In this document: positions 32,811 through 37,754 of the stretch, in pieces | How positions within the stretch are numbered: the first letter of the stretch is position 1 | How the letters are laid out: every line of letters starts with the position of its first letter | Source of the DNA: an uncultured Poribacteria bacterium | GTDB lineage: Bacteria; Poribacteria; WGA-4E; PCPOR2b | Direction of reading: 5' to 3' | NCBI GenBank assembly: GCA_958296125.1 | Contig: OY282444.1 | Span: forward strand, 1,289,176 to 1,353,175 | DNA length: 64,000 nucleotides | The notes under the pieces: model-generated | The model's input: only the letters and a program-made list of their open reading frames with translations | What the model was told of the DNA's origin: nothing | Databases searched by the model: none | Program-made: the position numbers and the translations under genes

Positions 32811-33800
32811 ATGGATAAAAAAAATTGGATTGTTTGTAGCTTACTCATTCTACTGTTTGGATTCACTAGCGGCACAGCCAATGCGGCGAAATTCAAGGTC
32901 GCCTTGCTGACCCCCGGCTCGATCAGCGATGCCGGGTGGAACGCGCTGGCTTATGAAGGGTTGAAGCGGATTGAAAAGGAACTGGGGGCAGAGATTAGCC
33001 ATGTCGAAAGCAAAACCCCATCGCAATGGGAGGAACATTTTCGATTCTATGCGAGTAAGGGGTACGGTCTGGTCTTCGGACACGGATTTGAGTATCAGGA
33101 GGCTGCAAAAGCTGTTGCGCCCGATTTTCCGGATACGGTGTTTATCACAACCTCCGGGAATACAGTTTTAGATAATGTGGCATCAATTGTTTTTGAGCTT
33201 GAGGAGGTAACATATCTGCTAGGAGTCATTTCCGGCGCGATGACCCAGACAGGAAAGATTGGGCTTGTCGGCGGCATGAACATCCCGCCGATTAACAGCA
33301 CTTTTCACGCCTTTGAAGAAGGGGCGAAATCTGTCAATCCAAATATCAAAGTTTCCCGATCCTACGTCGGAGATTGGGAGAACATCGGAAAAGCGAAGGA
33401 GTTGACATTGTCCCAAATCACAGAAGGAGCGGATTTCATCTTCCACAATGCGGATGCCGCCGGGCGTGGTGTTTTTCACGCTGTCGAAGAGAGCCGTAAA
33501 GCGGGTAAGGACGTTTACGCTTTCGGATCAAATCGGAATCAGAACGACATTGCCCCCGATGCAATACTTGCAAGTGCCGTAATCGATACCCAAGCCTTTG
33601 TATACGCCGCCGATTTGGTTCAGACGGGCAAATTTGAACCCCAAGTGATCTGGATGGGGATGTCGCTTAATGAGACTGTGAAGTTGGTTTACAACCCGAA
33701 ACTGAAGGGTCGCATCCCTGAGGATCTCCTCGCCAAAGTTGAGAAAATTCGTCAGGATATTCTCGTTGGTAATTTTAAGGCACCTCGCGTGAAATTTTAG
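32811..33800 (+). CDS. BMP family (nucleoside) ABC transporter substrate-binding protein
   Basis: Signal peptide; GSISDAGWNALAYEG, VFGHGFEY, IGLVGG, GADFIFH. Confidence 0.92.
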   Translation: MDKKNWIVCSLLILLFGFTSGTANAAKFKVALLTPGSISDAGWNALAYEGLKRIEKELGAEISHVESKTPSQWEEHFRFYASKGYGLVFGHGFEYQEAAKAVAPDFPDTVFITTSGNTVLDNVASIVFELEEVTYLLGVISGAMTQTGKIGLVGGMNIPPINSTFHAFEEGAKSVNPNIKVSRSYVGDWENIGKAKELTLSQITEGADFIFHNADAAGRGVFHAVEESRKAGKDVYAFGSNRNQNDIAPDAILASAVIDTQAFVYAADLVQTGKFEPQVIWMGMSLNETVKLVYNPKLKGRIPEDLLAKVEKIRQDILVGNFKAPRVKF

Positions 33801-33826
33801 AAACAGGGGGCATTTAGAGGTAAAGG

Positions 33827-36610
33827 ATGATTATATTACATGACAATTCAAATAGTGACTTATCGCATATTCAGGCAATGGGACGGATGGAGGAGAAGTT
33901 TGCTCTGTTTGATTATGTTCGTATAGAACAACAGGACGGTAAAGCGTGGATTGGACAGATTGTCCACCCTAACCGAAATATCTCGACCGTGGGTAATCCC
34001 CTTGATCCAACGATTCTTCATGGCCTCGAACTGATGGAATCCCACGCTGATGTGCACTCCGTAAAATCGGTACAGGTGTTTGATATATTGATATTAGGAG
34101 AAGACGACGGGAATCAGATGCTCACGCCGCGGATACGCCCCTTGCCGGGTGCTTCCGTGACTCCACTGGATAGAAAAACGATAAGCCTGGTTATTAGGAT
34201 CCCTGAACAAGCAGAGCATAGAGATGGAAGTTCTAACGTCATCGGTGAGCTTCTCAATGCAGGCGGTGTGCCGCTCTGCATTGATGAGCGAACGTTTAAC
34301 CACCACATCATGATTGCAGGTGGGACCGGTTCGGGAAAATCAAACATTGCCGCGAATTTAAGCGATCAGGCAATGAAATTTAACAAATGCGTTTTGGTTC
34401 ATGACGCAAAACCTGACTATGCGTTTATTGAGAATCAAAATAGCGACCCAAACGTAGAGACAGTCTGGAAACGCTTTGAAAAATATGGATTAAAACCTCG
34501 TTCAGCTAATGACATAATTCGTCGTGTCGGATTCTACGGCAAGTGCGATCCAAACCGTGTAGATATTGTCGCTGGGTGTAGGGCATCAGATTTATCACCG
34601 CCTATGCTAGCAGGTTTCTTCTTTCCTAGAAAAGAGGAAGAATTACAATTTGAAGGATTTGTAAGTGCCGCTGATTCCATCGCTGATTCCATCGCTGATT
34701 CCATTGAGGAGAAGCACTATTCACTTGATGACATCGTGAAAGTTGTTCGAGATCGCATGGGGTCCGTGGATCCGGGAGAAGGGATTCATCCTGCAACAGG
34801 AAAAACCATATTGGGAAAAGTCCAAACCCGCAGGAAAGAAATGCCGTGGCTTGATGCTGTTGGTGTCAAGACAGTTGACGGCAAGACAGTAAAAAAATTT
34901 GATATTAATGTAAGGGAAGGGCGGATTTTGGTCATTGATTATTCACAGATGGACGATTCGTCCTATGCCTTACTCTTGTCCTACGTCCTTGAGTATTGTC
35001 AATCGCTTCGCAGTAATGGAGAAGGAGTGGGCATTGTTCACATGGTAGATGAAGCACACCGCATTTTTGATAATGAGTCACGTTACAGCGATACACTCGC
35101 CGGTTCATTCAACGACATTATGCGTGAAGGGCGAACGCTTGATCACTCAATTATTCTTAGCCTTCAAAATGCTTCGCAAATCCCCCGGCTTGTGATGAAT
35201 AATCTCAACACGCATCTGGTGATGCATCAGAACAGCAAGGCTGAAGCGGACTTCGCAACGCAGGCAATGGGAAGAGAGTTTTCTGTAGAGGCGTTAGCAC
35301 TTGGCACAGGCCATGCCCTTGTTAAGATGTTTGAATCGTCCGCTGTTATTCTAGTGCAGATGGCACCCTCTCCATTTGAACTCATGCGTAGCGATAACAC
35401 GCTAAGCCGGGTTATTAGAATCCCTCAAAAAGTAGAGCATACAGATGGAAGTTCTAACGTCATCGGTGAGCTTCTCAAGGCAGACGGTGTGCCGCTCCGC
35501 ATTGATGAGCGAACGTTTAACCACCACATCATGATTGCAGGTGGGACCGGTTCGGGAAAATCAAACATTGCCGCGAATTTAAGCGATCAGGCAACGAAAT
35601 TTAACAAATGCGTTTTGGTTCATGACGCAAAATCTGACTATGCGTTCATTAAGTCTCAAAATAGCGACCCAAACGTAAAAACAGTCTGGAAACGCTTTGA
35701 AAAATATGAATTAAAACCTCGTTCAGCTAGTAACGTCACTCGTGTCGGATTCTACGGCAAGTGCGATCCAAACCGTGTAGATATTGTCGCTGGGTGCATG
35801 ACATCAGATTTATCACCGCGTATGCTAGCAGGTTTCTTCTTTCCTAGAGAAGAGGAAGCATTAAAATTTGAAATATTTGTAAGTGCCGCTGATTCTATTG
35901 AGGAGAAGCCATATTCACTTAATGACATCTTGGAAGTTGTTCGAGATCGCATGAAGTCCGTAGATCCGGGAGAAAAGATTTATGCTGGAACAGGAAACAC
36001 CATATTAAAAAAAGCCCAAACTCGCAAGGAAGAAATGCCGTGGCTGGATGCTGTTGGCATCAAGACAGTTGACGGCAAGACAGTACACGAATTTGATTTT
36101 AATGTAAATGAAGGGCGGATTTTGGTCATTGATTATTCACAGATGGACGATTCGTCCTATGCCTTACTCTTGTCCTACGTCCTTGAGTATTGTCAATCGC
36201 AGCGCAGTGAGAGAGAAGGAGCGGGCATTGTTCACATGGTAGATGAAGCACACCGCATTTTTGATAATGAGTCACTTTACAGCAATACACTCACCGATTC
36301 ATTCAACCGTATTATGCGGGAAGGACCAACTCTTGATCACTCAGTTATTCTTAGCCTTCAAAATGCTTCGCAAATCCCCCGGCTTGTGATGAATAATCTC
36401 AACACGCATCTGGTGATGCATCAGAACAGCGAGGCTGAAGCGGACTCCGCAACGCAGGCAATGGGAAAAGAGTCTTCTGCAGAGGCGTTAGCACTTGGTA
36501 CAGGCCATGCCCTTGTTAAGATGTTTGAATCGTCCGCTGTTATTCTAGTGCAGATGGCACCCTCTCCATTTGAACTCATTCGTAGCGATAACATAGATAA
36601 CAAAAAGTGA
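33827..36610 (+). CDS. HerA/FtsK-superfamily ATPase with HAS-barrel and two tandem ATPase domains
   Basis: N-terminal FDYVRIE...WIGQI; two GGTGSGKS Walker A and two HMVDEAHR Walker B motifs. Confidence 0.85.
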   Translation: MIILHDNSNSDLSHIQAMGRMEEKFALFDYVRIEQQDGKAWIGQIVHPNRNISTVGNPLDPTILHGLELMESHADVHSVKSVQVFDILILGEDDGNQMLTPRIRPLPGASVTPLDRKTISLVIRIPEQAEHRDGSSNVIGELLNAGGVPLCIDERTFNHHIMIAGGTGSGKSNIAANLSDQAMKFNKCVLVHDAKPDYAFIENQNSDPNVETVWKRFEKYGLKPRSANDIIRRVGFYGKCDPNRVDIVAGCRASDLSPPMLAGFFFPRKEEELQFEGFVSAADSIADSIADSIEEKHYSLDDIVKVVRDRMGSVDPGEGIHPATGKTILGKVQTRRKEMPWLDAVGVKTVDGKTVKKFDINVREGRILVIDYSQMDDSSYALLLSYVLEYCQSLRSNGEGVGIVHMVDEAHRIFDNESRYSDTLAGSFNDIMREGRTLDHSIILSLQNASQIPRLVMNNLNTHLVMHQNSKAEADFATQAMGREFSVEALALGTGHALVKMFESSAVILVQMAPSPFELMRSDNTLSRVIRIPQKVEHTDGSSNVIGELLKADGVPLRIDERTFNHHIMIAGGTGSGKSNIAANLSDQATKFNKCVLVHDAKSDYAFIKSQNSDPNVKTVWKRFEKYELKPRSASNVTRVGFYGKCDPNRVDIVAGCMTSDLSPRMLAGFFFPREEEALKFEIFVSAADSIEEKPYSLNDILEVVRDRMKSVDPGEKIYAGTGNTILKKAQTRKEEMPWLDAVGIKTVDGKTVHEFDFNVNEGRILVIDYSQMDDSSYALLLSYVLEYCQSQRSEREGAGIVHMVDEAHRIFDNESLYSNTLTDSFNRIMREGPTLDHSVILSLQNASQIPRLVMNNLNTHLVMHQNSEAEADSATQAMGKESSAEALALGTGHALVKMFESSAVILVQMAPSPFELIRSDNIDNKK
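34182..36593 (+). repeat. Intragenic tandem duplication (34182-35399 and 35403-36593)
   Basis: Long runs of identical DNA at an offset of about 1221 nt, in frame. Confidence 0.95.
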
Positions 36611-36620
36611 GAAATTTCAA

Positions 36621-37754
36621 ATGCTCAGAAGGATTTTGGAGTTCTTCAATCCATCGGAACACAAGAATCCATCGGAACGCAAGAATCCACCGGAACACGA
36701 GAATCCACCGGAACGCAAGCAACCTGTTGAAATGTTTCACGAACTGCTCAATGGATCGAGATGTGTATCGAGAAATGATTTTGCCGCTAATTTCGGTGGA
36801 ATTGCCAACGATGTTGTGAAGATGCTCACCAGCGATCAAGCAAAGCAGGCAATACAGGAAGCGCGTAAAACTATGGACAATGATCCGGTCGATTCCCGGT
36901 TGCGTAAGGTGAAGTTTGGTTTATTCAGTGATGCGAAAGAATTAGAGAGGGGAGAAGTCGCCGCTATAGACGGAACCTTCGCCCTTCCAATGCAGAAGTA
37001 TTCAGCAGGGCAGGCGATCTGCATTGGCATTGGTAGTCTCTCACATTGTCGACTAATGCAAGATTCGTCACACTATTGGTCAAGCAAGGCTTTTCTTTCT
37101 GATGCAGCCGATACAGATGATTTCATTGCACGCGAAAAACGAGGGCTTTTCGGCATATATCCAACAGCGTATTTGCGATACTATGAGATTAAGCACTGTC
37201 TTAAAATTAAGGAGCCATACCTGTTCTTAGATGGTCCCTTGATCGATGAGTCCCTCATATCAACTCAAGAAGGGGTGCAACTGTATAACAAACTATTTGG
37301 AAAGAAAAACAAGCAAGTTCTGGGGATTATCAAAAATATAGCGAATCCTGCATTTACCAAATTTGCTCGCGCCCTTAAATCCGGTGAAATTTATGTGATT
37401 GAAACTTTAGCAGACCACTTAAATCAGAGCAACGTAGCCCGTAGCCGCCCTGTATCGGCTGAGTTTAAGAATGGCATCGCCTGCGATGTGTTCAGGGGTG
37501 TCTTTAAGCCCGGAAAAAAAACATTCGGTTTCGAGGTACACAGGGATCACCTAGAGGATATGCTACGCATCATGGCCGCTGATTGTCAAATGAACAAACC
37601 CGGACACGAAATCCCATTTTTACTCAATCGAATTGATGAAGAAGTTCGCAAAAATTTCAGTCAACACATCTTAAGAGATCGAATCGCTACTGAGATGGCG
37701 ATTCAGAGTGAGGAGTTGTTTTTTGAGGAGACGGATGAGCGTTTTTTCCGTTAG
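36621..37754 (+). CDS. NurA-like nuclease
   Basis: AAIDGT and LFLDGPL acidic motifs, C-terminal IPFLLNRIDEEV; starts 10 nt after the HerA stop. Confidence 0.7.
   Translation: MLRRILEFFNPSEHKNPSERKNPPEHENPPERKQPVEMFHELLNGSRCVSRNDFAANFGGIANDVVKMLTSDQAKQAIQEARKTMDNDPVDSRLRKVKFGLFSDAKELERGEVAAIDGTFALPMQKYSAGQAICIGIGSLSHCRLMQDSSHYWSSKAFLSDAADTDDFIAREKRGLFGIYPTAYLRYYEIKHCLKIKEPYLFLDGPLIDESLISTQEGVQLYNKLFGKKNKQVLGIIKNIANPAFTKFARALKSGEIYVIETLADHLNQSNVARSRPVSAEFKNGIACDVFRGVFKPGKKTFGFEVHRDHLEDMLRIMAADCQMNKPGHEIPFLLNRIDEEVRKNFSQHILRDRIATEMAIQSEELFFEETDERFFR
36648..36719 (+). repeat. 18-bp coding repeat x4
   Basis: aatcca(t/c)cggaac(a/g)c(a/g)ag encoding NPSEHK NPSERK NPPEHE NPPERK. Confidence 0.9.

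Follow-up and report, generated by a model that had tools for sequence, protein, structure and literature searches.

Introduction

The closest described relatives of the gene reported here are the HerA ATPases that act with NurA in end resection, with structures from Sulfolobus solfataricus (4D2I), Deinococcus radiodurans (7WRW/7F6D) and Thermococcus kodakarensis (9X1M). In the solved HerA-NurA complexes, six HAS domains form the ring on which NurA docks, each NurA monomer touching several HerA subunits (PMC9960219), and a C-terminal brace of S. solfataricus HerA (SsoHerA) embraces the neighbouring protomer (PMC5715905, PMC9960219). R381 of SsoHerA acts in trans, and its mutation to lysine abolishes ATPase activity and DNA degradation (PMC4351679); K363 is a DNA-interacting residue of the central channel (PMC5715905). 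In the anti-phage protein DUF4297-HerA, R455 together with K456 contacts the ATP phosphates from the adjacent subunit, as seen by cryo-electron microscopy, and mutation of R455 drastically cuts ATPase activity (PMC11291478). Tandem ATPases of the FtsK/HerA superfamily are known from EccC and EssC, in which domain D1 is catalytic and carries an arginine finger, whereas the domains that follow it are degenerate and have a regulatory role (PMC11154593). Here we describe a HerA gene located in a 64,000-nucleotide (nt) stretch of DNA (the window; contig OY282444.1, positions 1,289,176 to 1,353,175) from an uncultured Poribacteria bacterium, a sponge symbiont represented by a single-contig, 5.16-Mb metagenome-assembled genome. 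Its product carries one HAS barrel and two motor domains in a single chain, the second of which appears to have lost the arginine finger.

Results

Two motor domains in one open reading frame

The 927-residue open reading frame matches Pfam DUF87 (Helicase HerA, central domain) twice, with 102.7 bits against a cut-off of 23.2. It contains two complete motors, whereas one motor per polypeptide is the rule in the HerA clade. Both copies have the motifs of a RecA-like core of the additional-strand catalytic-glutamate (ASCE) type, GGTGSGKS as Walker A and MVDEAH as Walker B, and in both motifs the DNA of the two copies is identical. A HAS barrel ahead of the first motor is indicated by a phmmer alignment to 4D2I that begins at residue 26 of both proteins, and by the beta-rich N-terminal domain predicted by AlphaFold2 (AF2).

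The AF2 model of residues 1-525, comprising the HAS barrel and copy 1, had a predicted local distance difference test score (pLDDT) of 80.6 and a predicted template modelling score (pTM) of 0.80. The Foldseek alignment spanned this whole 525-residue model, and its top 50 matches were all HerA, the best of them with TM scores of 0.62-0.70 and 4D2I with an E value of 5e-23. The sequence profile matched 4D2I with an E value of 2.4e-13. Copy 1 is made up of a linker, the RecA-like motor, a helical insertion and a C-terminal part, and the native C-terminus, IDNKK, comes after copy 2.

The duplication is genuine, in frame and comparatively recent

A first-pass annotation of the window, made from the sequence alone, had proposed a recent in-frame duplication with two highly similar motor copies and had argued against an assembly artefact. 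Its coordinates were right to within 1-5 nt, and each part of this proposal was borne out. A repeat finder returned direct repeats of 300 nt and 159 nt with start-to-start spacings of 1221, 1218 and 1194 nt, and protein self-alignment paired residues 119-524 with residues 526-922, with two in-frame gaps of 1 codon and 8 codons. The 8-codon length difference is explained by a 12-nt sequence repeated three times in copy 1. The duplicated unit measures 1221 nt, or 407 codons, and runs from the linker after the HAS barrel up to five codons before the stop codon; homology begins at about 34177 on the 5' side and stops at about 35398 on the 3' side, with only 1-2 nt of microhomology between the two breakpoints. 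The copies are identical at 1101 of 1191 aligned nucleotides (92.4%) and at 335 of 397 residues (84.4%), and codon positions 1, 2 and 3 account for 35, 31 and 24 of the 90 nucleotide differences.

A maximum-likelihood tree of the motor region placed the two copies as sisters with 100% bootstrap, with branch lengths of 0.034 for copy 1, 0.052 for copy 2 and 0.060 for their shared stem. Synonymous divergence (dS) was 0.067 between the copies and 0.21 against the nearest orthologue. The sister relationship and the lower dS between the copies together indicate a recent origin within this lineage. The possibility that copy 2 is a transferred foreign allele was rejected, as the copies are each other's closest relatives.

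We examined the raw data through short-read unitigs from five public runs of one sample, which is the same sample as that of the assembly. Two strain alleles of a single-motor gene laid in tandem by the assembler might imitate a duplication, since the genome is metagenome-assembled and a distance of 7.6%, as seen between the copies, is possible between strains. Such a collapse predicts half depth for each copy and no junction. Instead, the junction (35356-35472) is bridged by a mismatch-free unitig of 117 nt in each of runs X1-X4, and its depths of 6.5/8.7/2/2.6 match those of the single-copy flanks in these runs (5.1-6.3/5.6-9.0/2-2.9/2.8-4.9). An 80-nt segment identical in both copies (35306-35385) was present at about twice this depth (13.1/19.2/4.1/7.5), and copy-specific unitigs (34549-34945 and 35767-36139) were at about single depth, which is full rather than half depth. 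The ratio of non-synonymous to synonymous substitution rates (dN/dS) between the copies, about 1.2, is also unlike the allelic divergence of a constrained gene. Collapsed alleles were rejected on the unitig depth and junction evidence, and an artefact of this kind is extremely unlikely. These results show that the duplication is genuine, in frame, lineage-specific and comparatively recent.

Two differences from the assembly, each confined to a single run, were seen among the unitigs: T>C at 34374 in one X2 unitig, and a G inserted after 36462 in one X4 unitig, which would frameshift copy 2. Each may be a rare variant or an assembly error.

Residues at the arginine-finger and pore-loop positions differ between the copies

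The trans-acting finger motif (R/K)EGR(K), which follows helix alpha4, is present in copy 1 (R436 in MREGRTL) and absent from copy 2 (P834 in MREGPTL), with the codons that the first-pass annotation had given. A 129-nt unitig containing the CCA codon of P834 was found at single depth and without mismatch in four runs (X1, X2, X4 and X9). The same annotation had taken the second arginine of the REGR motif for the trans-acting finger, and several alignments agree with it. Pairwise and profile alignments to 4D2I place R436 opposite R381 of SsoHerA and E409 opposite E356, and R436 aligns with R455 of DUF4297-HerA (8XAU). In the AF2 model of residues 1-525, R436 stands directly past helix 422-434 and ahead of strand 440-446; the canonical position of the finger is the end of alpha4 (PMC11154593). 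For comparison across the family we used the best 120 of 243 matches to the 927-residue query among 5.8 billion proteins. The finger position was arginine in all 10 orthologous loci and in 120 of the 120 homologues, and the proline of copy 2 is derived relative to all outgroups. Judged by these alignments, R436 is very probably the trans-acting arginine finger, and copy 2 would have lost it through R834P.

A further difference concerns the basic pore-loop residue after Walker B, which is R419 in copy 1 and L817 in copy 2. This position is arginine in 98% of the 120 homologues, and R817L would remove a putative DNA-gripping arginine from copy 2. Copy 2 still has its P-loop, its Walker B motif and its QN sensor region. 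Copy 1 keeps all of its catalytic residues (Walker A, Walker B and R436) as well as R419, and with the HAS barrel it makes up a nearly canonical module in which almost all family-conserved residues are intact.

Among the positions that differ between the copies, seven replacements of copy 2 fall in columns conserved to at least 90% (N551K, C558R, P603S, K728, R817L, R834P and M918I). Six of the seven are residues never seen in the 120 homologues, and the columns of N551, C558 and P603 are 100% conserved in that set. Only two such replacements, at G330 and R430D, were found in copy 1. The aspartate of R430D, equivalent to R375 of SsoHerA, lies six positions before the finger and arose by a change of two adjacent bases (ancestral codon CGC to GAC). 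Neither R817L nor R430D had been mentioned in the first-pass annotation. Overall, columns conserved to at least 90% are off consensus at 9 positions in copy 2 and at 4 in copy 1, and a comparison with the family consensus counts 27 derived sites in copy 2 against 11 in copy 1 (binomial p=0.014). Copy 2 is thus diverging faster than copy 1, and the divergence is asymmetric.

Homologues carry a single motor

All of the 120 homologues were 513-630 residues long, and each covered 57% of the query. When 1.84 billion cluster representatives were scanned exhaustively with HMMER, the best 150 of 297 matches included no two-motor protein. The sole long protein among those 150 (P0229, 4763 residues) matched HerA residues 462-532 in 16 separate stretches, so that a segment of some 70 residues from the motor recurs within a giant protein. 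Single-motor orthologues of 516-558 residues were found in four related genomes and in nine species-representative genomes, and all of them read MREGRT followed by L, F or R. Among the sequences searched, the tandem-motor architecture is unique within this family.

Table 1. Positions of the tandem-motor HerA gene, its parts and its downstream neighbour in the window
Feature	Position	Strand	Basis or remark
Tandem-motor HerA gene	33827..36610	+	927 residues plus stop; list of open reading frames, two Pfam DUF87 matches, fold match
HAS-barrel-like N-terminal domain, residues 1-117, once per chain	33827..34177	+	SsoHerA alignment, AF2, start of repeat
Repeat unit 1 (copy 1), residues 118-524, 1221 nt	34177..35398	+	Repeat finder, self-alignment, breakpoints
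Repeat unit 2 (copy 2), residues 525-922	35399..36592	+	Repeats, self-alignment, breakpoints, junction unitig
Junction peptide between copy 1 and copy 2, containing FELMRSDNTLSRVIRIPQK			
Walker A GGTGSGKS, copy 1 (K171)	34319..34342	+	Aligns with SsoHerA K154
Walker A GGTGSGKS, copy 2 (K578)	35540..35563	+	DNA identical to copy 1
Walker B VDEAH, copy 1 (D408, E409)	35045..35059	+	Aligns with SsoHerA E355/E356
Walker B VDEAH, copy 2 (D806, E807)	36239..36253	+	DNA identical to copy 1
R436 (CGA), predicted intact trans-acting arginine finger of copy 1, in MREGRTL	35132..35134	+	SsoHerA and DUF4297-HerA alignments
P834 (CCA), finger position of copy 2, Arg to Pro, in MREGPTL	36326..36328	+	Sequence, short-read unitigs
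R419 (CGT), putative pore-loop basic residue, copy 1	35081..35083	+	Aligns with SsoHerA K363
L817 (CTT), pore-loop position of copy 2, Arg to Leu	36275..36277	+	Alignment of copies
D430 (GAC), copy 1, at family-Arg position	35114..35116	+	Family comparison
R828, copy 2 counterpart of D430, Arg kept	36308..36310	+	Family comparison
12-nt tandem repeat, three units (ADSIADSIADSI), copy 1 only	34669..34704	+	Repeat analysis, copy alignments
NurA-like nuclease gene, 377 residues, begins 11 nt past the HerA stop	36621..37754	+	Pfam NurA

Constraint on both copies changed after the duplication

The dN/dS of about 1.2 between the copies corresponds to 72 non-synonymous and 17 synonymous differences, and contrasts with values of 0.10-0.36 between single-motor orthologues over the motor region. 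Changes were polarised by outgroup-majority parsimony, 11 further differences not being polarisable. After the duplication, copy 1 acquired 27 non-synonymous and 4 synonymous changes and copy 2 acquired 39 and 8, giving 66 and 12 for the two copies together, against 13 and 9 on the pre-duplication stem (Fisher p=0.016). This difference indicates that constraint shifted sharply after the duplication in both copies.

These counts bear on whether the gene is in an early stage of decay, drifting towards a pseudogene but so far spared any stop codon or frameshift. The duplication would then have crippled assembly, or the gene pair would have become dispensable, and the losses at the finger and pore-loop positions would be the first lethal hits. 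The high dN/dS, the shift in the ratio of non-synonymous to synonymous changes and the replacements of copy 2 at conserved positions all fit decay, and the absence of a stop codon after about 90 substitutions is only weakly improbable under neutrality (P=0.04-0.08 over the two copies, and about 0.2 when copy 2 is taken by itself). Conserved columns, however, were strongly avoided: the 177 columns conserved to at least 90% hold just 8 of the 61 amino-acid differences, against an expectation of 27 (Fisher p=2e-8). Since the differences avoid conserved columns and the catalytic residues of copy 1 are kept, purifying selection has clearly acted since the duplication. Every length change, three in all, is in frame, which also argues against decay. 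Tandem duplications are unstable, and a direct repeat of 1.2 kb is normally lost by recombination unless it is retained. The genome carries two recA genes, and an unfavoured repeat should have been deleted well before the copies reached 7.6% divergence; retention therefore seems to have been favoured.

Omega came to about 0.5 for conserved columns and to 1.6-2.0 for variable ones, where the excess over 1 is borderline (p=0.02-0.1, depending on kappa). This is suggestive of positive selection at the variable columns, which we do not claim. The helical insertion (25% of columns) and the linker (22%) had the highest density of differences, and the RecA core (10%) the lowest. The first-pass annotation had offered sub-functionalisation in progress as one reading of the two copies. 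The asymmetric divergence fits this idea, but the dN/dS of about 1.2 fits relaxed constraint or decay as well.

The NurA-like partner and the gene cassette

The NurA-like gene downstream of the HerA gene scored 21.6 bits in the Pfam NurA model, borderline against a cut-off of 21, and a comparison of its product with PDB sequences gave no meaningful match. It adjoins HerA in all 11 related loci, whose neighbourhoods differ. In the window it is intact, with a dN/dS of 0.13-0.24 against its orthologues, which is a point against decay. An 18-nt sequence repeated four times in tandem (88% matches, window positions 36648-36719) lies at its 5' end and encodes NPSEHK-like hexapeptides, of which the orthologous genes have a single NPSK(R/P)K unit. 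Three in-frame tandem expansions, the 18-nt repeat of four units, the 12-nt repeat of three units and the 1221-nt duplication, thus lie within 3 kb.

In the window and in three related genomes (G005, G010 and G022), the HerA-NurA pair separates the gene for a BMP-family lipoprotein from that for its ABC ATPase. The corresponding gap (window 33800-33827 and 37754 sides) is empty, at about 30 nt, in four congeners (L018, L019, L024 and L026), and in other loci (L020-L023 and L025) it holds a gene for a 371-residue enolase-superfamily protein. The cassette was found in 4 of 40 related genomes and was absent from 36. The nearest HerA, at 84% amino-acid identity, is that of G022, which belongs to another genus; those of same-genus genomes (G005, G010 and G014) are 75-78% identical. 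Because the nearest HerA sits in another genus, the sequences suggest that the cassette has been exchanged among Poribacteria. In the closest relative (OZ244587.1, L008 7541-8685), the NurA gene is frameshifted into frames of 154 and 271 residues; the cassette appears to be decaying in that genome, and it can therefore be dispensable. These results show that the HerA-NurA cassette is accessory, mobile and sometimes decaying. Its low occurrence, varied contexts, empty insertion sites and frameshifted relative count in favour of decay of the present gene. Weighed against the avoidance of conserved columns, the in-frame length changes, the persistence of the repeat and the intact NurA-like gene, decay is a possible but rather unlikely explanation.

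Possible arrangements of the two motors

We tentatively favour a reading in which the working ring consists of the HAS barrel and copy 1, and copy 2 has been kept as a nucleotide-binding module that lacks a finger. The in-frame tandem duplication copied the whole motor and left out the HAS barrel. The HAS barrel and copy 1 would most likely still assemble the six-fold ring usual for HerA, with NurA docked on its HAS domains; this arrangement is favoured because each chain has one HAS domain and six HAS domains hold NurA in the solved complexes. ATP would be hydrolysed at the interfaces between neighbouring copies of copy 1, each R436 serving the copy 1 site next to it. Copy 2 would be a paralogous appendage on which constraint is much weaker or of another kind; it probably binds nucleotide and would be unable to stimulate hydrolysis in a neighbour or to pull DNA. 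The pore-loop loss in copy 2 makes sense because such a domain would no longer pull DNA. We infer that the protein is still functional and that copy 2 has been retained by selection, since the indels are in frame, no stop codon has arisen, the NurA-like gene is intact with an ordinary dN/dS and conserved columns have been avoided.

By analogy with the degenerate D2 and D3 domains of EccC/EssC, copy 2 might form a non-catalytic collar or a second tier. Tandem fusions in KaiC and in type II AAA+ proteins stack as tiers, and to our knowledge so does every natural tandem fusion of ring ATPases. A tier arrangement is favoured because the known tandem ring-ATPase fusions, including EccC/EssC, stack, though the two-tier geometry, taken by itself, remains doubtful.

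Catalytic and non-catalytic sites alternate in the six-domain ring of F1 and V1 ATPases (alpha3beta3), and a comparable arrangement can be drawn for the present protein, as the first-pass annotation had done. Three chains would close into a single ring of six domains, with copy 1 and copy 2 in alternation. R436 would complete the ATP site of the adjacent copy 2, probably within its own chain, since HerA extends its C-terminal part towards the neighbouring protomer, and the copy 1 site that follows a finger-less copy 2 would be dead; of the six sites, three would then be live and three dead, as in F1. This arrangement would account for the retention of the cis-acting motifs in both copies and the loss of a single trans element, and a brace like that of SsoHerA would place the end of copy 1 towards the position of its neighbour. 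The charges look complementary, as R430D takes a positive charge from the trans-face helix of copy 1 and N551K and C558R add positive charges upstream of the P-loop of copy 2, and these changes could reflect co-adaptation of a new, non-equivalent interface. The elevated omega at variable columns hints at adaptive change, and HerA-NurA has been reported to use its ATP sites pairwise rather than all six together (PMC5715905). Such a ring would, however, offer NurA only three HAS domains in place of the six on which it docks. R817L would remove half of the DNA-contacting staircase, even though the live ATP sites would be those of copy 2. Fusions of the KaiC and type II AAA+ kinds stack rather than alternate. 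EccC/EssC stacks too (PMC11154593). We consider the alternating ring improbable. The fuller version, a working covalent dimer that trimerises into a ring of alternating live and dead sites and whose halves have been co-adapting under positive selection over the approximately 7% divergence since its birth, is likewise improbable. In our view, a two-tier or appendage arrangement is likelier than a single ring with alternating sites.

Several observations weigh against our preferred reading of a working HAS and copy 1 ring with an appended copy 2. Besides the high dN/dS between the copies, copy 1 itself is not evolving like a normally constrained motor, as its 27 non-synonymous and 4 synonymous changes show, and through R430D it has lost an arginine that is 98% conserved on the helix ending in the finger. 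The architecture was seen in one metagenome-assembled genome from one sample, the cassette is rare among related genomes and its NurA gene is broken in the closest relative. As to expression, a search for RNA runs gave only DNA-like runs of one sample. The ring geometry is wholly inferred. AF2 prediction of the full 927-residue chain (63-homologue alignment) gave a mean pLDDT of 61.6 and a pTM of 0.46, with copy 2 and the junction mostly below a pLDDT of 50, and is uninformative on how the domains are arranged; MAFFT puts all homologues on copy 1, which leaves copy 2 without alignment depth.

Discussion

A young duplication in a ring motor

The alpha and beta subunits of F1, domains D1-D3 of EccC, NSF, p97, KaiC and the RecA pairs of superfamily 1 and 2 (SF1/SF2) helicases all go back to ancient duplications, some of them with dead domains. 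Ancient duplications hide their first steps, and the one described here is young (dS 0.067, 84% identical) and has single-motor outgroups. The first losses can be read: the distal copy has lost the finger and the pore-loop arginine, and the proximal copy one conserved arginine. A HerA with a young tandem motor duplication shows, as few cases do, an early stage in the acquisition of non-working domains by ring motors. A functional protein would be a ready-made natural construct for asking what number of live sites a HerA ring requires and where its asymmetry comes from. A decaying gene would be just an ordinary accessory one that is being lost. Were the alternating ring true, it would be a natural early intermediate on the way from a homomeric ring motor to an asymmetric motor of the F1 or tandem-RecA kind.

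Comparison with known systems

The nearest relatives are the single-motor orthologues of Candidatus Poribacteria and cyanobacteria (e.g., OZ244587.1, OZ242326.1, and the 'ATP-binding protein' of Roseofilum and Phormidesmis), which are 57-84% identical over residues 1-525. They share the NurA-like partner and the REGRT motif with the tandem-motor HerA and differ in their length of 513-630 residues and their single motor; the duplication was present in none of the matches listed.

With the HerA of end resection, the protein has in common the HAS barrel, the RecA-like core with its helical insertion, Walker A and Walker B, the REGR finger motif and a neighbouring NurA-like gene. It differs in that the identity is just 14-16%, threonine rather than lysine follows the finger, and each chain has two motors, the second without a finger or a pore-loop arginine. 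Resection HerA is encoded in an mre11-rad50 operon, whereas the cassette described here is accessory and mobile among Poribacteria and cyanobacteria. The NCBIfam equivalogs HerA_Thermprot and HerA_antiphage gave 39.9 and 42.3 bits, below their cut-off of 800. The tandem-motor protein belongs to a separate, unnamed HerA subfamily.

The anti-phage systems SIR2-HerA, DUF4297-HerA (Nezha) and TdpAB likewise combine a HerA fold with a two-gene cassette of ATPase and effector and a patchy distribution. R436 has its direct structural reference in the KEGRK finger motif of DUF4297-HerA, whose R455 and K456 act in trans. The partner is NurA-like here and SIR2 or DUF4297 in the anti-phage HerA systems. 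PADLOC HerA models matched only partially (E values of 1e-13 to 1e-8 over about 100 residues). A known defence system was considered and rejected: the best PADLOC match was 'mad8' (E value 1.3e-22), the HerA models matched in part and the NurA-like protein had no match, which is insufficient.

EccC/EssC of type VII secretion offers an analogy only, that of one live motor and dead copies in one chain. The T7_EssCb model gave 28.8 bits against a cut-off of 778, well short of membership in EccC/EssC. EccC, ancient and membrane-anchored, consists of three domains and a DUF, and what the dead ones among its domains lost was Walker A and B, not the finger. In F1 and V1, the alternating sites belong to separate, anciently diverged subunits, of which the non-catalytic one supplies the finger, whereas in the HerA described here the two domains are fused in one chain and are 84% identical.

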